Below, one piece after another: positions 4,785-48,081 of a stretch of 64,000 nt of DNA. Position numbers and translations under genes: made by a program. How positions within the stretch are numbered: position 1 is the first letter of the stretch; each line of letters opens with the position of its first letter. The stretch is from Marine Group II euryarchaeote MED-G35 (GTDB lineage: Archaea > Thermoplasmatota > Poseidoniia > Poseidoniales > Thalassarchaeaceae): positions 8,630 through 72,629 of the forward strand of contig NTJS01000002.1 in assembly GCA_002457155.1 (NCBI GenBank), written 5' to 3'. A model generated the notes under the pieces. That model was not told the DNA's origin, did not search any database, and saw nothing but the letters and a program-made list of their open reading frames with translations.

Positions 4785-5492
4785 GTGCACGAATCTTCTG
4801 GCAGCATCGGCATAGGGGCGATGATCGTATTCATCGCTCTGATACTGGTAGCGGCAGTGGCATCAAGTGTGATAATCAAAAGCGCGGAGGAACTATCTGA
4901 AAAAACCGACCAATCTAGAGACGATCGCCAGTTCTCCAAGGTCGAAATCTCGGATATCCAGGTTTTCAACTACGAGCCCTGTTGGGTGCACTCACATACA
5001 GACCCAGAGACATGCCCCAGTGGTTATCCGAGGGACAAGGGACATTATGAATTGGTGATGTACTTCTCAATATTGGGGGATGTCGAACTACAGGCAAGCG
5101 AGATCCACTATCAGGTCTCATGTGGCGGGGAGACCCTCCCAATCCTTTCCAATTTTCGAATAGTGACTTTTGGAACCCAATCGACATGGGATTCCCAGAG
5201 TAGCCTCGACCAAGGTTACACCGGTGCTCCGTTCAACAGACAAGCCGTGGTTCTCCCCGGCGAAGAGAAGGACAATACTGCGACTTCAATCGGCATCCTT
5301 GAGCCCGGAATAACATACGCTGTCATGATCGACCTATTCGACAATCAGAACACTGCTGGAGAGGCTGATGATGAGGGGTGCCGGATTTCCCTTGATTTTG
5401 TTATCGATCTCAATGTTTTCGTAGAGGGTGGAATCGATACTTATGCCATTATAGATTGCGACAGTTACCTGCTGGGATCATCTTGCTATTGA
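4785..5492 (+). CDS. archaellin / archaeal type IV pilin-like protein (class III signal peptide)
   Basis: The N-terminus SGSIGIGAMIVFIALILVAAVASSVII matches the archaellin/pilin class III signal plus hydrophobic helix. The remainder is a Cys-containing globular domain. Confidence 0.65.
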   Translation: MHESSGSIGIGAMIVFIALILVAAVASSVIIKSAEELSEKTDQSRDDRQFSKVEISDIQVFNYEPCWVHSHTDPETCPSGYPRDKGHYELVMYFSILGDVELQASEIHYQVSCGGETLPILSNFRIVTFGTQSTWDSQSSLDQGYTGAPFNRQAVVLPGEEKDNTATSIGILEPGITYAVMIDLFDNQNTAGEADDEGCRISLDFVIDLNVFVEGGIDTYAIIDCDSYLLGSSCY

Positions 5493-5504
5493 ATTCGAAC
5501 CCAA

Positions 5505-5981
5505 CTACTCAACTTCTACGACATTCGTCGGAATCCCGGCTGATTCTGCCCTGTCAATCACTATCCTAGTCCACTTGCTCGTCGGAGATGGCATTGCTAG
5601 GACGTTTGTGGCGGCAGACAGAATCTTTTCAGTTAGTGTGTTCGGGGCCTCTCCCCTGTTCCTGTCTATCAGACTCCTCAGGGGGTCATTCCACTCCTCT
5701 GAGAAGACGGCTATCGGAATCAGGTTGTTGTCCGCCCATCTCTCGGCCATGTAGTCAACACCACTAGCACCACCGACAATGATTAGGTCCGGGTACGTGT
5801 TCTCTTCTATCCATTCCTCCAATGCCGCCTCGAAGATTTCGAAGTCGTAGAACCTGCTGCTGCCCACGATTGCGAGGTTGATCACGGACCCGTCGAGATT
5901 CAGGTCCTGCCCACCCAAGGTTTCGACAACTGTCTGCCCTGCCTCTTCCTTCATCAGTTGGCCATGGGAGTAAGCATGCAT
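5505..5981 (-). CDS. SLOG-superfamily DUF2493-like protein
   Basis: The Rossmann-like core LAIVGSSRF ... LIIVGGASGVDYMAERWA is typical of DUF2493/YspA-like SLOG domains. Confidence 0.55.
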   Translation of the reverse strand: MHAYSHGQLMKEEAGQTVVETLGGQDLNLDGSVINLAIVGSSRFYDFEIFEAALEEWIEENTYPDLIIVGGASGVDYMAERWADNNLIPIAVFSEEWNDPLRSLIDRNRGEAPNTLTEKILSAATNVLAMPSPTSKWTRIVIDRAESAGIPTNVVEVE

Positions 5982-6009
5982 AAATGCTGCTAATCGCTAG
6001 AAGGCGACT

Positions 6010-7419
6010 TCAGGGGGTGACGCGACTCCTGTCTCTGGGGAAGAGCACCACCTCTCTCACGTTTCCCGCACCGGTTAGAACCATCAACAGTCTGGCCACT
6101 CCGAGCCCCCATCCAGCATGTGGCGGAGCCCCAAAGCGAAAACCGTCCGTGTAGAATGTGAAATCAGTCGGGTCCAGACCTACCTGCCTGAGATTCTGCT
6201 CCAATACCTCTACCCTGTGCTCCCTCGCGCCTCCGCTGGTCATTTCGTCCCGACCGAAGTTCAGGTCGAATCCACGGCTCAGCTGGCCCCCCTCGGAACC
6301 CTCCTCGCCTTGCTTGTGGTGGATGTAGAATGGCTTCATCGACATGGGCCATCGGGGGATGAAGTGGAAGCCGGGATACTGGGTTGCGATGATGTCGCAA
6401 TGGTGGCTCTCTATGTCGTCCCCCCACTGGATTTCTCCCCCACCCGACTTCACAATCTCGATAGCATCGCAGTACGGTATGCGCGGGAATGGAAGCTCAG
6501 GAGCCTCAACAGTTACCGGACCCTTGCCTTGGGATTCCCTGTACTCGTTCACCACGCCAATTAGCGACATGTCGTTCTGGGAGATCTCTTTCCAGATGTG
6601 GTGTATCATCCTTTCTTGCACACCCATCACGTCCTCGTCGTCCATCCATGCACCTTCTATGTCGAATGAGACGAACTCGTTCAGATGCCTGTAGGTGTCG
6701 TGCTTCTCGGCCCGGAACGCCGGTCCGATCTCGAAGACCCTCTCCAATCCGCCGAGCACCGCTAGCTGCTTGTACAACTGGGGGCTCTGTGAGAGGTACG
6801 CATCCGTCTCGAAGTACTTCATGGGGAACAGGTTGGTCCCTCCTTCTGCGGCTGCGGCGATAATCTTCGGTGAATTGATTTCCTGGAATCCCTCTGTGAT
6901 CAAGTGTTCCCTGCCATACTGGAGGACCTTGCTCCTGAGTTGGAACATTGCATTGACATGGGACCTCCTTAGGTCCAAGTGCCTATTGTCCAATCGCACG
7001 TCCAAGCCCACATTGACCTCGTCAGTTACCCCTACGGGGAGGGGTGTAGCAGCTTCGGCCAAGATGGCTCCAGATCCAACACTCACCTCGAACTCAGCAG
7101 GGGGCTCCGGCTCACCTTCTGCAACCTTCGGCGGGCGCTTCTTGGCGACCACTCCAGTAACTTGGATTGTCGACTCCCTGGTCGCTGACTGTATAGCCTC
7201 GAACAAAGTCTCGTCCATGTTGTCCCTCTTGAGGAATGCTTGGATCCGTCCGGTCCCATCTCTGAGCATAAGGAAGCATATCGCACCCCTTCCCCTGACT
7301 GTCTCGGCATAACCCGCGATGGTGACCTCTGAACCAACCAAGGACCCCCCGTCTCCAACAACCTGGCCGATGGTATGCGTTCGATACGACGTCGGCTTCC
7401 AGTTTGAACTGTCTCTCAT
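6010..7419 (-). CDS. aspS: aspartyl-tRNA synthetase, archaeal/eukaryotic type
   Basis: It has an N-terminal OB anticodon-binding domain. Class II motifs are present (FRAEKHDTYRHLNEF, GGAREHR, PPHAGWGLGVARLLM). Confidence 0.9.
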   Translation of the reverse strand: MRDSSNWKPTSYRTHTIGQVVGDGGSLVGSEVTIAGYAETVRGRGAICFLMLRDGTGRIQAFLKRDNMDETLFEAIQSATRESTIQVTGVVAKKRPPKVAEGEPEPPAEFEVSVGSGAILAEAATPLPVGVTDEVNVGLDVRLDNRHLDLRRSHVNAMFQLRSKVLQYGREHLITEGFQEINSPKIIAAAAEGGTNLFPMKYFETDAYLSQSPQLYKQLAVLGGLERVFEIGPAFRAEKHDTYRHLNEFVSFDIEGAWMDDEDVMGVQERMIHHIWKEISQNDMSLIGVVNEYRESQGKGPVTVEAPELPFPRIPYCDAIEIVKSGGGEIQWGDDIESHHCDIIATQYPGFHFIPRWPMSMKPFYIHHKQGEEGSEGGQLSRGFDLNFGRDEMTSGGAREHRVEVLEQNLRQVGLDPTDFTFYTDGFRFGAPPHAGWGLGVARLLMVLTGAGNVREVVLFPRDRSRVTP

Positions 7420-39452: not shown

Positions 39453-39590
39453 CCACCAAATTCCGATTAAGCGAAATAGATCCACATGACCCCGCTATCG
39501 GAACTAAAATGGCCTTTTCGTCCATCAGAATGGCCAAAATTGCAGTTTTTTAGGGTGATACTAAATACACACCATAGCCTCAATGGGACG

Positions 39591-41855
39591 ATGAAGGCTA
39601 AAGCGAATGCTCTTCTATTATGCACACTGATGATTGCATCAGCCCTGGCGGGATGCGCTGGGGAGGATGTGGAAAGGACGCTGACACAAGCTGACTGCGA
39701 CGCAATCGGAGACGGTTACACGCTAGACAGCGGCAACAACGCATGCGTCACAACCGAAACCGTGACTGAGACCGTGACTGAGACCGTCACCGAGACCGTG
39801 ATCGAGACACTGGTTAGGGGCTGCACAGATTCAGCCGCAAACAACCACGACTCCGCAGCGGAACTGGATGACGGCTCCTGTGACTACGGGCGCGCGCAGG
39901 CCGACATAATGGCTGACTACGCGGCTGACACAATCGACTTCTCTCAGGCTCTATACGAGCTTGAGGTTTCGAGGAAGTGCCGTGAGCAGGGTTCGAACAA
40001 CCCATGCGAGATCGTCGAGATGTCCATTGGGGACGCTTCGACAATCGACCCAGGCGATGCATACGACTCCGCATCTGGAGACGTTATCGAGCAGGTCTAC
40101 GACACTCTGTACAGGTACGCCGGTGACGGCAGCGGGAACGCTATTATCGAGCCAAGGCTCGCTACTGGTTATTCCGTCAGCTCAGACGGACTGACGTACA
40201 CCTTCACTCTACGTGACGATGTGCACTTCAGCAACGGCGACAAGATGGAAGCCTCAGATGTCGTTTACTCGTGGTGCAGGGTCATTGGATACGCAGGACC
40301 TGCGAGCCACGTAAACTGGATCCTAGACCAGTCATTCAACTGCAACGATGCAGACGGAAACCACGATGACAACGGCGGACTAAACCTGACGGCGATTGAC
40401 GCCACCTCTTTCTCAGTGACCTTGAAAGCACCATCGTCCGCGTTCATATCCACCATTGCCTACACCGTGGGCGCTGTGATCAACGCTGACCTGTGCGAGG
40501 CCAACAGGGTAGTCGAGCTCGATGCTAATGGCACCGTGACATCAGACGACTACTGCCACGCATGGTTGGACGAGGGACCATTCGGAGCCGGTACCAACGC
40601 ATACCTGGTCCAGTCATGGGTCCGTGAGGACAGGATCGTCCTAACCCCCAACTGGATGTACTGGGAGTCTGGAGACTACAACATCAACAGGCACACCATG
40701 ACCATCGTTACCGAGGCATCAACGAGGCTACTTGCATACACCGACGGAGAGGTAGACTTCGGAAGCATCAACATCGAGGATCTGATCAACTTCTGCTACA
40801 TCGACGAGAACGGCAACGGAGCAATGGACGCAGGAGAGGACGACGCCCTTGACGACAAGCCGAACGTGGCTAGCAAGGCCGGCCACATCTGCACCTACAG
40901 GGAGACTTTCACAACGACCCTGTCGGCATTCAACCTCAACCCGAAGGTTCTGGACGCAGGAGAGGACACCAGCAACACGGACGCAAACTCGTCCCTGGTG
41001 CTGAACCACGACTGCAGTGACGACGGAGTTTCCGAGAACGATTGCAACGTCATGGCAACAGCAGCCCTGAGGGAGGCAATCTCCTACGCGTTCGACTACG
41101 ACACGCACCGAAGGGTCACCTACGACAACTCCCTGGCGCCTCAGTACGGGCCGATCCCAACCGGATTCCTGTACGCGGGAACCCAGTACGAGGTCTTCAC
41201 ATACGACTTGGCTAACGCCGAGGCAATCCTGGAGAACGCCGGATTCATCCGCCAGTACGACTGCTCTTCGTTGTCTCACGGTGGAGCACCCACTGTGGTC
41301 GCAGTAGCAGACAGGGACGGCACCGAGTGCCGCCTACCCAACGTCCTGCGCGTGATGGCAAACGAGGGCAACGACTACCGAATTGCCATGGCCGGACAGC
41401 TTGAGGAGGCCCTAGGGACGATCGGAGTTGCAACTTCCGGTGACGCAAAGTCCTGGCCAGAGTACCTCACGATGTACTACACCAGGACCTGGGACATCCG
41501 CTTCAGCGGATGGGCCCCTGACTACCTGGACCCAGACAACTACTGGTCGCCATTCGCAGGCAGCCATGACATCGGCGGTGACGCATATGGTACGGGATAC
41601 CACAACGACGTCGTGGATACGCACCTGCTAACCGGCAGGACGTCCCAGGACGACGCCACGCGCGAGCAGGCGTACATCGATGCCTTCGCGGCATGGGTGC
41701 AGGACCCCAACATGATCATCATCGGTCAGTACAACGGAATCGGCGTCAAGCACGACGACATCTGCTCTCCTGACTGGGTGGCCATCGGGTCCGCTCACTG
41801 GTTCGACTACGACAAGCTGCCAGAAGTTGACGGCGCACTAGTCGGAACCTGCTAG
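39591..41855 (+). CDS. ABC transporter substrate-binding lipoprotein, family 5 (peptide/nickel, OppA/DppA-like)
   Basis: The signal peptide has a lipobox (LAGCAGE). A Thr/Glu/Val linker is followed by a family-5 SBP core (IVEMSIGDASTIDPGDAYDSASGDVIEQVYDTLY). I chose the ATG at 39591. Confidence 0.85.
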   Translation: MKAKANALLLCTLMIASALAGCAGEDVERTLTQADCDAIGDGYTLDSGNNACVTTETVTETVTETVTETVIETLVRGCTDSAANNHDSAAELDDGSCDYGRAQADIMADYAADTIDFSQALYELEVSRKCREQGSNNPCEIVEMSIGDASTIDPGDAYDSASGDVIEQVYDTLYRYAGDGSGNAIIEPRLATGYSVSSDGLTYTFTLRDDVHFSNGDKMEASDVVYSWCRVIGYAGPASHVNWILDQSFNCNDADGNHDDNGGLNLTAIDATSFSVTLKAPSSAFISTIAYTVGAVINADLCEANRVVELDANGTVTSDDYCHAWLDEGPFGAGTNAYLVQSWVREDRIVLTPNWMYWESGDYNINRHTMTIVTEASTRLLAYTDGEVDFGSINIEDLINFCYIDENGNGAMDAGEDDALDDKPNVASKAGHICTYRETFTTTLSAFNLNPKVLDAGEDTSNTDANSSLVLNHDCSDDGVSENDCNVMATAALREAISYAFDYDTHRRVTYDNSLAPQYGPIPTGFLYAGTQYEVFTYDLANAEAILENAGFIRQYDCSSLSHGGAPTVVAVADRDGTECRLPNVLRVMANEGNDYRIAMAGQLEEALGTIGVATSGDAKSWPEYLTMYYTRTWDIRFSGWAPDYLDPDNYWSPFAGSHDIGGDAYGTGYHNDVVDTHLLTGRTSQDDATREQAYIDAFAAWVQDPNMIIIGQYNGIGVKHDDICSPDWVAIGSAHWFDYDKLPEVDGALVGTC
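39753..39809 (+). repeat. 12-nt in-frame tandem repeat (about 4.5 copies of ACCGTGACTGAG) encoding (TETV)n
   Basis: I read it directly: ACC GAA ACC GTG ACT GAG ACC GTG ACT GAG ACC GTC ACC GAG ACC GTG ATC GAG ACA. Confidence 0.9.
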
Positions 41856-42003: not shown

Positions 42004-43158
42004 ATGAGGCTGCACGAGTTCGTCGTCCGCCGGGTCTTGCTTCTCATCCCGGTCATGATTGGCGTCGCAGTCTTCACCTTCGCAGTGGCGCAAATAATCC
42101 CCGGCGACCCAGCCGCTCTCCAATGCGGTGACAAATGCGGACTTATTGTCGGATACGACGACGATGGAAAACCAATCACGGCACACCAAGCTAATCGCGA
42201 GAGGCTGAGGCTGGATGATCCAGTCAGCCTGCAGTTTGAGAGGTACATTACCGACCTAATCAACGGAGACTGGGGAGAGTCACAGAAAAACGGCCGACCT
42301 GTCATTGACATAATCAAGACCTCCGCACCGGTAACGCTCGAGATGGCCTTCTTCTCTCTCATGATTGCCTACCCATTGGGAATCTTCCTGGGCATTATCA
42401 GCGCCGTGAGACAGGACAGGATGTTCGACCACGTCTCTCGGTTCTTCGCCATCGCATTCGTCAGCCTCCCCATCTTCTGGTTCGCCATGCTCCTGCAGCT
42501 CTACTTCGCAACAGGACCTCAAGTGGGGGGAATATGCGACCCGATATTCGGCACGGAAGGAGGGTGCTTCCCTATATTCGACAGGCATGACCAGAGCTAC
42601 ACGTATCCCTTGGATGGATACCACTCACTCTACCCAGAATCAGGTACTGGATTCCATCTGATAGACAGTTGGTTCGTGACTGATGCGAAGTTAGCAGAAT
42701 TGCCCTCCGAGTTCGACACTAATCGAGAGTTGTTCATGGATACGTTGATCCATCTGGTGCTACCATGCTCCGCCCTCGGGATAGCATCCTCTGGCTCGCT
42801 ACTCAGGTACATGCGAGCCAGCCTTCTGGAGGTGCTCCACGAGGATTACGTCAGAACTGCAAGGGCCAAGGGGCTCTCGGAGTTCAGGGTCGTGGTCGTG
42901 CACGCATGCAGGAACGCCATGGTTCCCATTGTCACCATCCTGGGATTCTCCATAGGGGGTGCGATTGGGGGGGCGGTGCTGACCGAGTCAGTTTTCGGCA
43001 TCCACGGCATGGGAACTGTGGCCGTCTTGGGAATCCTGCAACTGGAATATCAAATCGTCATGGGAGTAACCTTACTCACTTCAGTGATCTTCCTTCTGTC
43101 TAATCTGATAGTGGACATCGCCTATGCAATTGTGGACCCGAGGGTGAGGCTAGAATGA
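42004..43158 (+). CDS. ABC transporter permease (OppB/DppB-like)
   Basis: The N-terminus is VVRRVLLLIPVMIGVAVFTFAVAQIIPGDPA, and the EAA-loop region is DYVRTARAKGLSE. Confidence 0.85.
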   Translation: MRLHEFVVRRVLLLIPVMIGVAVFTFAVAQIIPGDPAALQCGDKCGLIVGYDDDGKPITAHQANRERLRLDDPVSLQFERYITDLINGDWGESQKNGRPVIDIIKTSAPVTLEMAFFSLMIAYPLGIFLGIISAVRQDRMFDHVSRFFAIAFVSLPIFWFAMLLQLYFATGPQVGGICDPIFGTEGGCFPIFDRHDQSYTYPLDGYHSLYPESGTGFHLIDSWFVTDAKLAELPSEFDTNRELFMDTLIHLVLPCSALGIASSGSLLRYMRASLLEVLHEDYVRTARAKGLSEFRVVVVHACRNAMVPIVTILGFSIGGAIGGAVLTESVFGIHGMGTVAVLGILQLEYQIVMGVTLLTSVIFLLSNLIVDIAYAIVDPRVRLE

Positions 43159-44924
43159 GAGATTGGGAAGAAGGTCGAAAAGACCGAGAAGAGAGTCAGA
43201 AGAGACTCTTGGAATCTCTGTCCATGTCCATCAGCAACCTCGGTCGAGGATGGAAGATATACCGTCGTTCACTACTAGCCATGCTCGGTCTACTGATGGT
43301 TTTGTCAGTCTCCATGGTCGCCATCTTCGCTGATGAAATAGCGGTCCAGCACCCATACAGGAATCTGACTGATACCGAGGACAAGTGGTCGAATAACCCT
43401 GACCAACAAGAGTCTCCCCCGTTCTCAGAGGAGTGCTCATTGCGCGAGCAGAAGATTACCACCAACCCTAGCTCCCCTCTATTCTCTGAGACCGTTGTGG
43501 CAGAGTCTGTAAACAAAGTCAGTGGCTCTATTGCCTATGGATACTACACGGATGTCCTTTCTATTACCGAGATCATCAAGATAGAGAATGATCGCGGCTA
43601 TGACCAAGACATTTCCCTAATCACGATTGATCCGGACAACTCCTCCCTTTTCGTGCTCTCTCCAGACTTGTATGGCAACTCCTCCCATTACACCGGCGTG
43701 TGGGTGACCTACCTGTACGAAAACGAGGACATGAGCCACTGGTGGTTACCTGAGGGATATGACACGTGCATCTTCGGAACCAACAAAGAAGGGCACGACG
43801 TGTTCAGCAAGGTGGTGTACGGGGCCCGAGTATCCCTCACCATCGGAATTACCGTGGCCACTCTAACCGTCACCATCGGGACCATCGTCGGAAGCATCAG
43901 CGGCTACTACGGGGGGAGGATCGACGAGGTGATAATGAGGATATGCGACGTTTTCTTCGCAATCCCCGGACTAATCCTCGCGATGGCGTTCGTGGCTGCA
44001 ATGCGGTCGGTCTCAAGCCTGACCTTTCCCGTTTGGTTGGGCATCCTCCTACCGGTCCTCATGCTGGCCTACTTCCTGAATTCCCATCTCTCCACAACCG
44101 TTCTGTCGGGTGATGAACGGGTCAGCGACCAAGCAATGGGGATGCTGATGGGGAACAGGTCCCTTCTGGTGGGCCTATTGGCCTTCCTTTTCTTCGTCGG
44201 GTGGCTCCCTGCGTTTGCATGGCCTGATTTCTTCGGGGTCTCTCACAGCAGGGGGTGGCGACTAATCTCCTCCTTGGTTGTGATCGTTCTTCTAGTGGGG
44301 ATAATTCTGGCAGATAGGAGGTTCGTGCAGAAAAATAGCTTGGACGGGGCTCTGACGAGGATCGGTTCATCGTTCGACTGGACCAATCCCTGGAGATACC
44401 TCAACTTCAGGACTGTCGTAGTCTTCCTATCCATGGCCATCCTGTTCAAACTATCTGGAAACGAGGGGCCAGAAATCGTACTAATCAAGGACTTCGACAA
44501 ACTATGGCAGGTGCAGTTCGCTCTGATATTCACCGGCTGGCCCGGGTATGCTAGGCTGATACGCGGGCAGGTCCTATACGTCAAGGAGATGGCTTTCGTC
44601 GAGGCAGCCAAGAGCGTTGGGGCACCTCCTAGCAGGATAATGTTCAGACACATCCTCCCCAATGCTTGGGCACCTCTACTCGTTGCCTTCACCTTGGATA
44701 TCGGCGGGACCATCCTATCCGCATCCGGGCTATCCTTCCTCGGTTTGGGGGCAGCACCGTATACGGCAGAGTGGGGGCTGATGATATCCGAGAGCAGGGT
44801 CGCTTTCCAACGAGCCCCCCATATGATGTTATATCCGGGCTTAGCGATAGCCGTGACGGTACTTGGTTTCAACCTACTTGGGGACGGCATTAGGGACGTG
44901 GTTGACCCGAAGAATAGGAGGTGA
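43155..44924 (+). CDS. ABC transporter permease (OppC/DppC-like) with large extracytoplasmic N-terminal loop and about 160-aa hydrophobic insertion
   Basis: Core motifs are GTNKEGHDVFSKVVYGARVSL, GYYGGRIDEVIMRICDVFFAIP, GWPGYARLIRG and FVEAAKSVGA. The protein is 589 aa, whereas I remember typical OppC being about 300 aa. It overlaps the upstream permease in an ATGA. Confidence 0.8.
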   Translation: MRDWEEGRKDREESQKRLLESLSMSISNLGRGWKIYRRSLLAMLGLLMVLSVSMVAIFADEIAVQHPYRNLTDTEDKWSNNPDQQESPPFSEECSLREQKITTNPSSPLFSETVVAESVNKVSGSIAYGYYTDVLSITEIIKIENDRGYDQDISLITIDPDNSSLFVLSPDLYGNSSHYTGVWVTYLYENEDMSHWWLPEGYDTCIFGTNKEGHDVFSKVVYGARVSLTIGITVATLTVTIGTIVGSISGYYGGRIDEVIMRICDVFFAIPGLILAMAFVAAMRSVSSLTFPVWLGILLPVLMLAYFLNSHLSTTVLSGDERVSDQAMGMLMGNRSLLVGLLAFLFFVGWLPAFAWPDFFGVSHSRGWRLISSLVVIVLLVGIILADRRFVQKNSLDGALTRIGSSFDWTNPWRYLNFRTVVVFLSMAILFKLSGNEGPEIVLIKDFDKLWQVQFALIFTGWPGYARLIRGQVLYVKEMAFVEAAKSVGAPPSRIMFRHILPNAWAPLLVAFTLDIGGTILSASGLSFLGLGAAPYTAEWGLMISESRVAFQRAPHMMLYPGLAIAVTVLGFNLLGDGIRDVVDPKNRR

Positions 44925-44940
44925 TTGGATAGCTAGAGAA

Positions 44941-46644
44941 GTGCTGGAGATTCAGGGACTCAGGGTCCACTTCGACACACTCGACGGATCAGTGGAGGCT
45001 CTAAACTCAGTTGATTTGAAGGTCGATGAGGGGCAGATAATGGGACTAGTCGGCGAGTCCGGGTGTGGAAAGTCAGTCACCTCATTGGTCTCCATAGGAC
45101 TCGCAACTTGCGAGGTCGACGAAGGGAGCGTCAGATATCAGGGCGAGGAACTCCTGTTCAGGGATTCCCCTTCGAACAGTCGGATACAACAATTTACGGA
45201 GAAAATCACGGCATTCGGAGTCATGGCCACCATATTCTCATTCTTCGCTACTATCCTAGTAGAGCCCAATTTCTTCAGCACCCTGTTCCTGTTTTTCTTA
45301 GCCATAACGGTAACGTCATGGCTAGTGGGATTCTCGGCAAAGACCGAATCTCGAAAGCACCAGAGGTACATGAGATGGGTTAGGGGGAACGAGATCAGCA
45401 TGATATTCCAAGAGCCAATGTCAGCTCTCAACCCCCTATACAAGGTGTCCAAGCAGATTTCTGAAGTAATGAGGGAGCACGATAGGCTAGTAGAAGCGGA
45501 AACCCCCAGAATCGAGCGAATCGGGAGTGCCTTGCTGAGCCCAATCTCGATGGTCAGGAAATCCTTCTCTTCAAATCCGCGTCAGTCGTTAGTAGCATTA
45601 GCGGCACTCTCATTCGTCTTCGCAGCACAGCTATCTGGTTCCAAGGACCAGATTCTAGATGTATTCTCGGCCCCGATCATTCTGTTCGCAGATCTATCAA
45701 GCTGGCTCTTGGCCTTCGGGACCGCTATATCCGGTTTTGATTTAATCAGCCTGTTTGGCGATACTATTAACTTGACAATCGCCCTGATCATGGTGTTCGT
45801 GGATCACATCTTCATTGTCGGCGGAATGGGTGCAATCTATGGGTATGGTAAGATCGCAGACGACTCTCCATTCTCCGATCTCTCGTTGTACATCCCCCAT
45901 GTGATCGCTTCTTACCTGGCAGTCTTCCTGATGATTTGGATGCCGCTATCCGGACTATCTGCGATCCTAGTGATATGCGCACTCCTTGCTGTCCCATTCA
46001 TCATCTGGGCCGACTTCCTTAGGCTGGACCCTGCTCACATTAGGCAGGTCGAGGGCATCTTGGATGACGTCAGGATTCCCGACCCCAAGGCCGTAGCCAA
46101 TATGTATCCGCACGAACTTTCCGGAGGCATGAGGCAGAGGGTAATGATTGGGATGATGATGGCATGTGAGCCCAAGCTCCTGATCGCCGACGAACCCACC
46201 ACTGCTCTTGACGTTACAATCCAGGCTCAGATACTTAACCTAATGAAGGTCCTTCGAGATGAGAAGGGGACTGCAATCCTGTTGATCACTCATGACCTCG
46301 GAGTGATTGCAGAGATGTGCGATGACGTAACGGTGATGTACGCTGGAAGAGTAGTAGAGAAGGCCTCTGTCAGAGAGATTTTCTCCAATCCATTACACGC
46401 TTACACAAGAGGCCTAATCGCCTGCACACCAAGCCTCGAGTCGGAAAGAGGCTCTGTTCTTCCAGCAATACCGGGACAGGTTGCGAATCCCTCGGATTTC
46501 GCCTCCGGATGTCGTTTCTGCCAGAGGATGGAAAGGGAGGGCAATACCTTGGTTACTCGCCCCGAATTCTTGGAAGCAAGCGAGGGTCACTGGGTCGAGA
46601 GCTGCCCTATTTGCCTAGACGAGTCACAGGACAGGTGGGTGTGA
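44941..46644 (+). CDS. ABC transporter ATP-binding protein (OppD-like) carrying two hydrophobic insertions
   Basis: Walker A is GESGCGKS, the Q-loop is MIFQEPMSALNP, the signature is LSGGMRQR, Walker B is LLIADEPTTALD, and the H-loop is ITHDLG. A C-terminal oligopeptide-type extension is present. I chose the GTG start at 44941. Confidence 0.8.
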   Translation: MLEIQGLRVHFDTLDGSVEALNSVDLKVDEGQIMGLVGESGCGKSVTSLVSIGLATCEVDEGSVRYQGEELLFRDSPSNSRIQQFTEKITAFGVMATIFSFFATILVEPNFFSTLFLFFLAITVTSWLVGFSAKTESRKHQRYMRWVRGNEISMIFQEPMSALNPLYKVSKQISEVMREHDRLVEAETPRIERIGSALLSPISMVRKSFSSNPRQSLVALAALSFVFAAQLSGSKDQILDVFSAPIILFADLSSWLLAFGTAISGFDLISLFGDTINLTIALIMVFVDHIFIVGGMGAIYGYGKIADDSPFSDLSLYIPHVIASYLAVFLMIWMPLSGLSAILVICALLAVPFIIWADFLRLDPAHIRQVEGILDDVRIPDPKAVANMYPHELSGGMRQRVMIGMMMACEPKLLIADEPTTALDVTIQAQILNLMKVLRDEKGTAILLITHDLGVIAEMCDDVTVMYAGRVVEKASVREIFSNPLHAYTRGLIACTPSLESERGSVLPAIPGQVANPSDFASGCRFCQRMEREGNTLVTRPEFLEASEGHWVESCPICLDESQDRWV

Positions 46645-46647
46645 GAA

Positions 46648-47706
46648 ATGTCGGAGGGGCCATTAATCGAAATAAGGGGGATGAGGAAGTGGTTCCCGAT
46701 CAAGCAAGGCATGATGTCATCCGTCAGAAGCTACGTCCGGGCAGTAGACGGTGTTGATCTGGAAATTAATCGAGGAGAGACCCTCGGTGTTGTCGGCGAA
46801 TCGGGCTGCGGCAAGACCACATTGGGGAGGGTCCTGATGGGCCTAATACCAATCACAGAGGGATCCGTGATTTATTCCGGCTCAGACATTCGTGAAATCC
46901 CAAACAAGGAGATAAGGCGCAAGATGCAGATTGTTTTCCAGGATCCGGGAGGTTCAATGAACCCAAGGATATCAGTTCGTTCTATTGTCGGGGAGCCCCT
47001 GCAGGTCAATGGGATATGCGAAGGAGTGGAACTGACCCGTAAGGTCGAGGAACTCTTGGAATCAGTTGGCCTGAAGGCCGAACACATGACTCGCTACCCC
47101 CACGAGTTCTCCGGGGGGCAAAAGCAGAGGATTGCTCTAGCAAGGGCCCTCTCACTTGACCCAGAGTTCATCCTTCTGGACGAACCCACCAGCGCACTGG
47201 ACGTCTCGGTCCAGGCTCAGGTGCTCAACCTGCTAGAGAAGATCCAGAAAGAGAGGGGGCTCACATTCGTTTTCATCTCCCACGACCTAGCCGTCGTTAG
47301 GCACATCTCCGATCGAATCGCTGTGATGTACTTGGGCAAGGTCGTCGAATTGGCCGATTCGGATGAGATCTACCGCAATCCCCTCCATGCATACACGAAG
47401 GCCCTTATTTCCGCCATTCCCAGCCCCGACCCCGATGCAAGGAGCGACCAACCCCCTGTCGAGGGGGACGTGCCCTCGCCGGTCGACCCCCCTCCGGGTT
47501 GTGCCTTCGGCCACCGCCTCCATCATCCCGACTGGGAGAAGAGCACCAAAATGGACCTGTCTCTGAGGGAGGTTTCCCCAGGGCATTGGGTGCAGCCTTG
47601 CCCCTGCTGCACGGATGAAAACGACGAGTCTCGGGACGCACCCCACGAGCAGGTTGCCGACGGCAATGCTTCCGAAGACGTCCCCGATTGGGCAAGAGGG
47701 GAATGA
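46648..47706 (+). CDS. ABC transporter ATP-binding protein (OppF-like)
   Basis: [37 protein letters not shown] and ISHDLA are present. At 352 aa it is of normal length. Confidence 0.9.
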
Positions 47707-48081
47707 ATGCCGAGGAGCACTGGCAATCCTGACGATGAATCCGAGACTCCCCCATTCTACGACAGGAGGAAGGAGGCAGAGTCTTCCTTCTGGCGACTGA
47801 AGAAGGCGTCGGACGCCTCTCGGGAGAATCGTGTGAAGACGGTCTTGGCCCAAGAGGAGGAGAGCCTACTAGCAACTCTTGGGAGAGTTGCCTACATCTC
47901 AGTATGCATATTGTTCGATGGCCTCATTCTCACAGAGATTCCCGTAAGGATGGGCAAGACAGTTTTTTCTTGGATATTGTTCCTGATCATACTATTGGCG
48001 GCTATCAGAATCCAGAGGCAGCTATACGACAAATGGCTCGCGATAGACATTAGCCAGATTGACTTTGATCGGACCCGATAG
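47707..48081 (+). CDS. small membrane protein co-oriented with the ABC operon, function unknown
   Basis: It starts on the nucleotide after the OppF-like stop. A charged N-terminal half is followed by 2 TM helices. Confidence 0.45.
   Translation: MPRSTGNPDDESETPPFYDRRKEAESSFWRLKKASDASRENRVKTVLAQEEESLLATLGRVAYISVCILFDGLILTEIPVRMGKTVFSWILFLIILLAAIRIQRQLYDKWLAIDISQIDFDRTR

Follow-up and report, generated by a model that had tools for sequence, protein, structure and literature searches.

The oppD gene (44941..46644) of Marine Group II (MGII) euryarchaeote MED-G35 lies in a 64,000-nt stretch of contig NTJS01000002.1 (assembly GCA_002457155.1), which is called the window here. It encodes a 567-aa OppD-type ATP-binding cassette (ABC) ATPase with two hydrophobic insertions inside its nucleotide-binding domain (NBD), as seen from the open reading frame (ORF), Pfam, NCBIfam and a structural model. 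This OppD, the ATPase of an archaeal importer of the Opp/Dpp type, is probably an integral membrane protein whose helices join an enlarged membrane domain. The NBD is treated as an invariably soluble, modular part of ABC transporters; if our reading is true, it has here been remodelled into an integral membrane protein without loss of its catalytic motifs.

All genes and features given below are on the + strand, and oppD belongs to one co-directional string in the order binding protein, oppB, oppC, oppD and oppF. The same order was found at the 24 genome loci, wherever it was readable. The set of a type I importer was complete, with a family-5 binding protein, two BPD_transp_1 permeases carrying EAA coupling loops, and two ATPases. 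By this gene content the operon is assigned to the peptide-type (Opp/Dpp) ABC importers, with peptide transport and ATP hydrolysis as its predicted activities.

Motifs and insertion sites of OppD

The oppD gene is a single uninterrupted ORF (44863/44941..46644), which gives 567 aa when read from GTG. The start is ambiguous by a few residues, with ATA 44929, GTG 44941 and TTG 44902 as alternatives; the ATG of the homologues aligns with ATA 44929, which stands 7 nt after AGGAGG, and the choice leaves the finding of the inserts unaffected. The AGGAGG before oppD (44916-44943 region) is strong and overlaps the oppC stop.

Each motif of an ABC ATPase, from Walker A to the H-loop, was located in OppD in the canonical order, as the preliminary description of this DNA had claimed. 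Walker A GESGCGKS (aa 38-45, 45052..45075) was invariant in 61 family members, and the Q-loop MIFQEPMSALNP (aa 154-165, 45400..45435) was followed by helix alpha3 with an invariant E175. Then came the signature LSGGMRQR (aa 393-400), Walker B LLIADEPTTALD (aa 413-424, catalytic Glu included) and the H-loop ITHDLG (aa 449-454), which together cover 46117..46302 in an NBD core with an entropy of 0.36 and a dN/dS of ~0.015. All motifs, including the D-loop, the Walker B Glu and the H-loop His, were invariant across the 61 relatives, and OppD is apparently a catalytically competent ATPase as far as its motifs tell.

The partner ATPase OppF (46648..47706, 352 aa) contains neither insertions nor hydrophobic segments, so that OppD is 215 aa longer than its paralogue in the operon, just as first noted. 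The two proteins share 40% identity over aligned positions, with two long gaps opening in OppF. Pfam gave one unbroken ABC_tran match for OppF, while in OppD the ABC_tran match was split into two stretches, followed by oligo_HPY (PF08352, E = 2e-13, aa 472-529). The best NCBIfam family for OppD was NF007010 OppD, with 284.6 bits against a cut-off of 575, and no curated equivalog cut-off was reached because the inserts split the match; judged from best match and operon position, the protein is OppD-like and not a curated equivalog. In addition, the NBD part of the OppD model matched E. coli OppD (8z21_C) with a Foldseek E of 1.9e-21 and a template modelling score (TM-score) of 0.87 normalised to the target. 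Motifs, fold, C-terminal domain and operon position all place OppD among the OppD/DppD-type ATPases of type I importers.

The boundaries of the inserts were set by alignment to the solved M. tuberculosis OppD (chain 8j5q_D), in which residues 4-78, 83-123 and 130-314 pair with aa 1-74, 144-184 and 368-551 of the window protein. Insert 1 (aa 75-143, 45163..45369) stands where M. tuberculosis OppD has 4 residues, and insert 2 (aa 185-367, 45493..46041), in the alpha3-alpha4 loop of the helical subdomain, where it has 6. The two blocks had been placed beforehand at about 45163-45372 and 45496-46026, and the alignment agreed with both to within a few codons. Site 1 follows a strand of the beta-subdomain and lies just ahead of a helix rich in lysine (K) and arginine (R) that leads into the Q-loop strand, and site 2 is the loop joining the first two helices of the helical subdomain, ~10 residues past E175.

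E175 was invariant in OppD and OppF in the pairwise alignment, and we take it to be the counterpart of E114 of E. coli DppD, whose numbering agrees with the 8j5q_D alignment. In E. coli, DppD E114 forms a salt bridge with the coupling helix of DppB (PMC12136057), and since E175 aligns with this contact residue, site 2 should lie at the interface of NBD and permease, near the membrane.

Canonical OppD and DppD proteins, as in E. coli OppBCDF (8z21), E. coli DppBCDF (8z1v) and M. tuberculosis OppABCD (8j5q), share the motifs, the oligo_HPY domain and the operon order with the window protein. They differ from it in the two loops, which are 4 and 6 residues long in the solved relatives, whereas those of the window OppD hold ~242 extra residues with 6-7 hydrophobic helices. 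A canonical OppD is a soluble peripheral subunit without membrane segments, while six or seven membrane helices were predicted in the window OppD.

Membrane character of the insertions

Kyte-Doolittle windows of 19 residues with values of at least 1.6 were present in both inserts, and none was present in OppF, which was used as the control. Translocon-scale energies were calculated as sums over 19 residues, with the helices of OppB and OppC and the whole of OppF scored likewise. The sums for aa 89-107 (-0.9), 111-129 (-1.4) and 339-357 (-1.9) were equal to or better than those of the OppB/OppC helices, aa 278-296 and 316-334 were marginal, and OppF had no segment below the threshold.

For charge and hydropathy a family alignment of 61 members with pairwise identity <92% was used. 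In these sequences the helix cores were without K, R, aspartate (D) or glutamate (E), and hydrophobicity was kept while the residues themselves varied. The cytoplasmic flanks were K/R-rich and the short outer turns acidic or neutral, which gives the positive-inside pattern of in-out-in hairpins.

AlphaFold2 was run with two alignments. That of 19 close relatives gave a predicted local distance difference test (pLDDT) value of 48 and was discarded, and one of 62 sequences from three subfamilies was used, with a mean pLDDT of 79.5 and a predicted TM-score (pTM) of 0.64. Helices were modelled at aa 77-106, 109-133, 213-231, 235-264, 268-288, 290-300, 312-333 and 336-359; the insert helices of 19-30 residues had pLDDT 80-92, and the hairpin of insert 1 was the most confident part, with values up to 92. 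A structure search of the PDB with the OppD model found nothing that covers the inserts.

Insert 1 contains two predicted membrane helices, in accordance with the two hydrophobic segments of ~20 aa proposed for it, and two hydrophobic spans were fixed across 321 relatives. Helix 1 (aa 88-108, 45202..45264) had a Kyte-Doolittle maximum of 2.15 and a translocon sum of -0.88 and was uncharged in the family; it ends in a conserved L-x-x-P turn (L106, P109), and in the model it belongs to helix 77-106 with pLDDT 85-89. Helix 2 (aa 110-131, 45268..45333) had a translocon sum of -1.37 and corresponds to the modelled helix 109-133 with pLDDT 90-92. W127 and G130 were invariant in it, and it runs on into a K/R-rich helix at 135-150; the flank of aa 131-150 carried 5.1 K+R per sequence in the 61-member alignment.

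Insert 2 opens with conserved cytoplasmic helices (aa 190-211, 45508..45573), with P189, R193, A197, S200 and P201 invariant. Predicted membrane helices 3 and 4 (aa 213-231 and 235-264, 45577..45732) follow, with an acidic outer loop between them and AlphaFold2 pLDDT of ~80-85. Their family hydropathy was 2.0 and their cores were free of charge, and the loop 231-240 carried 1.75 D+E against 0.48 K+R.

The middle of insert 2 (aa 265-311, 45733..45873) was variable, with gaps, an entropy of 2.6 and the lowest pLDDT, 51-62. It was hydrophobic in the window clade, hydrophilic and acidic in others, and expanded with extra hydrophobic segments in one locus (L024), which means that this region is expandable. 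In the distant clades insert 2 has a pair of helices on either side of a stretch of 45-75 aa that is hydrophilic and acidic. The L024 locus (4864-6828 of JAJPRD010000001.1, Thalassarchaeaceae MAG_45) encodes a divergent OppD of 654 aa and an OppC of 635 aa.

Insert 2 closes with a conserved terminal hairpin (45874..46041), in which helices 6 and 7 (aa 312-333 and 336-359, both modelled as helices by AlphaFold2; translocon sum -1.86 for 339-357) are joined by a WMPxS turn, and DFLRLDPAH forms the return to the NBD. M331, W333, M334, P335, S337, L348, L349, P352, D358, D363, P364, A365 and H366 were invariant among 19 relatives. The hairpin and its return, FLMxWMPxSxL...LLALP...DFLRLDPAH, make up the strongest motif of the inserts and were nearly as conserved as the catalytic core.

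Two hydrophobicity scales, family conservation with charge-free cores, K/R flanks with acidic outer turns, and AlphaFold2 thus agree in predicting the insert segments to be membrane helices, and from this we infer membrane insertion and topology. It is very likely that the two hairpins are embedded in the membrane. Both ends of each insert are cytoplasmic, therefore the number of membrane passes per insert should be even. The conserved core would then have 2 + 4 membrane helices, in insert 1 and insert 2 respectively, and the extra middle segment of the window clade is probably re-entrant or interfacial. For insert 2 of the window the count of 5-6 hydrophobic segments given earlier holds, and the family ranged from 3 to 7 with a mode of 5.

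Distribution and conservation of the insert-bearing family

Three homology searches were made, with the window protein and with two divergent members, and the best 120 matches of each were considered. All of these fell into the insert-bearing family. Nearly all listed matches were 538-614 aa long, and four shorter ones (461-501 aa) covered part of the query and were fragment-like. The matches came from many independent assemblies, whose named sources were Thalassarchaeaceae, marine group II or Euryarchaeota. We count at least 360 insert-bearing clusters, every one from Poseidoniales or marine group II and most from Thalassarchaeaceae.

A scan of one genome per GTDB species with insert-specific patterns gave 24 loci in metagenome-assembled genomes (MAGs) of Poseidoniales/Thalassarchaeaceae, including the closed 1.6-Mb MGIIb-O1 genome. 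Two of the 24 were exceptions in their labels, L015 (PBOB01000032.1, labelled Acidiferrobacteraceae) and L023 (CAJVZD010000037.1, labelled Cellvibrionales), and they carry the archaeal insert-bearing OppD; the operon is complete in the former and cut at its start in the latter. Both are probably cases of binning contamination and not of horizontal transfer.

The distance from Walker A to the Q-loop was 107-108 aa in 321/321 full-length relatives, each with two hydrophobic spans, against 37 aa in OppF. From the Q-loop to the signature there were 181-259 aa in the 321 relatives, with 3-7 spans (mode 5), against 53 aa in OppF. In comparison with four relatives, dN/dS was 0.13-0.17 in insert 1 and 0.21-0.32 in insert 2 and ~0.015 in the NBD core; ratios of this kind indicate that the inserts are translated and under purifying selection which is looser than that on the core.

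Relatives of the inserts outside the family were searched for at several levels. An insert 2 profile run against 1.84 billion representative proteins hit ten clusters, of which nine sequences were read and were OppD proteins or fragments of the insert-bearing family, and no match outside this family was found. The inserts alone had no significant match in Pfam and NCBIfam, the insignificant ones being to FeoB, E1-E2 ATPase and TctB, and a profile search of the PDB returned chance matches to helices of G-protein-coupled receptors (E of at least 0.1). When insert 1, each of the two halves of insert 2, the OppC insert and the small protein encoded after oppF were compared with one another by hhalign, no relationship was detected (probability at most 15%). 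Going by hhalign and the database searches, there was no sign of duplication or domain capture among the inserts, which look like lineage-specific loop expansions and not like a captured membrane protein.

Within the insert-bearing family the inserts are universal, and they are absent from every solved OppD, DppD and OppF. They are not a routine feature of OppD proteins. The preliminary description called a membrane module within an NBD unusual, and full-text literature searches found no report of membrane helices inside an NBD and, in marine group II papers, no comment on this transporter. The labels given in databases, "ABC transporter ATP-binding protein" or "hypothetical protein", hide the feature.

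Loops of the NBD, especially those between the Q-loop and the signature, are variable and can take up lineage-specific insertions through which contacts with the membrane domain are modulated. The variable region of the ABC helical subdomain and the regulatory insertion of CFTR NBD1 show a similar tolerance, but those are short or disordered soluble segments, and we know of no NBD insertion that forms membrane-spanning helices. The closest precedent that we found, an indirect one, is in the Mollicutes models of NCBIfam, NF043079 (MMSYN1_0167 OppD, 561 positions) and NF043078 (MMSYN1_0168 OppF, 649 positions), which also have long insertions at site 1. Their Q-loop segment stands at positions 301-339 (OppD) and 402-433 (OppF) instead of ~83-120, implying insertions of ~220 and ~330 residues, so site 1 is a place where insertions are tolerated in this NBD family. 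Site 2 of the Mollicutes OppD model holds no large insertion (positions 339 to 351 are contiguous), and the archaeal insert 1 had no match to the Mollicutes models, whose inserts are presumably not annotated as membrane-spanning.

Half- and full-size ABC transporters in which the NBD is fused end-to-end to a membrane domain, such as type IV exporters and MacB, likewise combine an NBD and membrane helices in one chain, with the ATPase permanently attached to the membrane. In those proteins, however, a separate membrane domain flanks an unbroken NBD, whereas the helices of the window OppD are nested inside the NBD at two points. The translocation pathway of the window operon is still provided by separate OppB and OppC, unlike in fused transporters.

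Remodelled partners and alternative readings

As far as sequence analysis reaches, the membrane module that the preliminary description proposed within the NBD is supported, and none of the refuting outcomes named there was found; the description had overlooked the parallel remodelling of OppC and a small downstream gene. Three blocks of OppC (43155..44924, 589 aa) could be aligned with E. coli DppC, leaving two insertions. The first (aa 74-196, 43374..43742) is a 123-aa extracellular domain after the first transmembrane helix (TM1), where DppC has 7 residues, and had no Pfam match. The second (aa 283-452, 44001..44510), 170 aa long, takes the place of an outer loop of 7 residues that joins TM3 to TM4. 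It holds four hydrophobic segments together with charge-consistent loops and had no significant Pfam match. At the 20 related genome loci in which OppC and a long OppD were both readable, the length of OppC was 544-715 aa. OppC is about twice the normal length, and this was conserved at the related loci examined.

The small gene is a 124-aa ORF (47707..48081) that begins at the first base after the oppF stop. Its product has a charged N-terminal helix, E..FWRLK.ASD..R..RVK.V.AQE, which was conserved and almost invariant, and two hydrophobic segments, the first with an invariant FDG; it had no Pfam, NCBIfam or PDB match. The ORF followed oppF in 20/24 genome loci. When a metagenome scan was seeded with the 124-aa protein, an insert-free OppF and a long OppD (561-648 aa) stood upstream in 46/46 loci with enough upstream DNA. 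The three operon genes with added membrane segments are inherited as a set, and the 124-aa protein is a candidate sixth subunit.

In the reading that we prefer, two surface loops of a normal NBD would have been expanded into membrane helices, with an in-out-in hairpin of fixed length at site 1 and four conserved membrane helices around a variable middle at site 2. The hairpin would rise from the RecA-like side and the four-helix unit from the helical subdomain, from loops compatible with reaching the bilayer. Together with the four helices of OppC and the two segments of the small protein, the OppD helices would probably enlarge the membrane domain from 12 to ~24 helices. OppD would be permanently anchored beside the permease, and the anchors would most likely stabilise the assembly, while the ATP cycle and the import dependent on the binding protein would probably proceed as in canonical Opp/Dpp systems. 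The operon would then encode an importer of the canonical Opp type in which, without precedent, one ATPase is an integral membrane protein, accompanied by corresponding additions to OppC and by a new small subunit.

In DppBCDF the two NBD subdomains turn against one another by ~20 degrees as ATP is bound and hydrolysed (PMC12136057). As the anchors would sit on two mutually rotating parts, they may transmit the rotation to the membrane domain, and with anchors on both the RecA-like side and the helical subdomain OppD would be a natural experiment on how rotation is coupled to the membrane. The Thalassarchaeaceae, the marine group IIb archaea that carry the inserts, are abundant in the ocean, uncultured and heterotrophic, and are thought to live on proteins and peptides; the operon may be a principal peptide importer of this globally important plankton group.

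Several points weigh against an OppD whose helices join the membrane domain. Helices 3 and 4, like the middle segment, reach only marginal hydrophobicity by the translocon scale, and the five hydrophobic stretches in insert 2 of the window are an odd number, so at least one of them is not a simple span. The dN/dS of the inserts is 10-20 times the core value, and the middle of insert 2, poorly conserved and variable in length, fits a loosely constrained appendage. An orientation of the helices towards the membrane side of the NBD, and contacts with OppB, OppC or the small protein, are conjectural. In E. coli, DppD lies beneath DppB and DppF beneath DppC (PMC12136057), and with DppD paired with DppB and not with DppC, a contact between the inserts of OppC and OppD is not to be assumed. 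What the sequences show directly is the architecture with its conservation, its confinement to one lineage and the joint occurrence of the three remodelled genes; packing partners, like function, are inferred, any specific function with low confidence.

The added helices of OppC (4), OppD (6-7) and the small protein (2) could instead make up a second, separate membrane module that has an activity of its own, such as a docking platform for the lipid-anchored binding protein or surface peptidases, a sensor that gates the ATPase, or an extra permeation path. The always co-inherited gain of membrane segments by three genes of one operon would suit such a module, as would the WMPxS outer turn, which is among the most conserved spots outside the catalytic core, the near-invariant charged helix and the FDG of the small protein, and the enlargement of the extracellular OppB and OppC loops and of the binding protein. 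It is nevertheless unlikely: the membrane helices of OppD are without conserved polar or charged residues of the kind expected for a pore or binding site, neither length nor helix number is constant in the middle of insert 2, and no added part is homologous to a known functional domain. Slightly less doubtful, and offered here as a tentative possibility, is that the operon represents an unrecognised architectural class of type I importer, with a polytopic ATPase whose two anchors arise from the mutually rotating NBD subdomains. These anchors, the four added OppC helices and the small subunit would build an extra membrane domain, mechanically driven by the NBD or regulating it, which would amount to a second coupling route beside the classical coupling helix.

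It is quite improbable that the inserts form a hydrophobic domain which does not cross the membrane, that is, a cytoplasmic or interfacial surface anchor, oligomerisation bundle or lipid pocket. Such a domain would accommodate aa 215-232, 241-263, 278-296 and 316-334, all marginal or above the translocon threshold, and also the poor AlphaFold2 model from the shallow alignment, but it does not agree with the insertion energies of three segments, which match or beat those of genuine permease helices. Moreover, cores of 19-25 residues are charge-free family-wide, both hairpins conform to the positive-inside rule on either side, helices of bilayer length meet in turns of 1-3 residues with a conserved Pro, and both insertion sites adjoin the permease interface.

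Hardly credible is an artefact of the long ORF (a chimera, a frameshift, or a removable intein or mobile element, leaving a soluble mature OppD): the slightly lower G+C (0.48-0.50) and higher T over 45400-46000 than in the flanks might hint at it, but T-rich composition is expected from the codons of hydrophobic residues, the same uninterrupted architecture recurs in hundreds of independent contigs and MAGs from many studies, including the closed 1.6-Mb genome, the inserts are conserved as protein with dN/dS (0.13-0.32) well below 1, and no insert homologue occurs as a separate gene or element among the 1.84 billion representative proteins searched by profile. Inteins and mobile insertions were rejected as candidates, with no intein junction residues, splicing or Hint motifs at either boundary, no Pfam or NCBIfam match and no homologue outside the family.

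Of the remaining genes, that for the family-5 solute-binding protein (39486..41855, 789 aa; ORF and Pfam) encodes an N-terminal signal peptide that ends with LAGC and a linker of TVTE repeats. The protein is unusually large; LAGC is lipobox-like, the repeat linker reads TVTETVTETVTETVIE, and an acidic N-terminal module containing Cys precedes the SBP_bac_5 domain. The permease gene oppB (42004..43158, 384 aa; ORF, Pfam and NCBIfam) has a stop that overlaps the oppC start, and an outer loop of OppB holds ~80 extra residues.

The C-terminal oligo_HPY domain of OppD (46354..46641), as found by Pfam and a motif census, carries a CxxC...CxxC motif. The canonical C-terminal [4Fe-4S] motif, seen in E. 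coli DppD/DppF and M. tuberculosis OppD, is Cx5Cx6C...C (PMC12136057). OppD of the window clade has CxxC-x27-CxxC (46510-46614) in its place, while a sister insert-bearing clade (loci L008, L014-L020 and L024) keeps the canonical form. The fetched full-length OppD sequences were split 160 to 196 between the two motifs, with inserts in both types, and the C-terminus of OppF in the window clade (47500-47650) reads C..H..H...C.CC. One possibility is that lineages of the surface ocean have exchanged Fe-S for Zn at this site.

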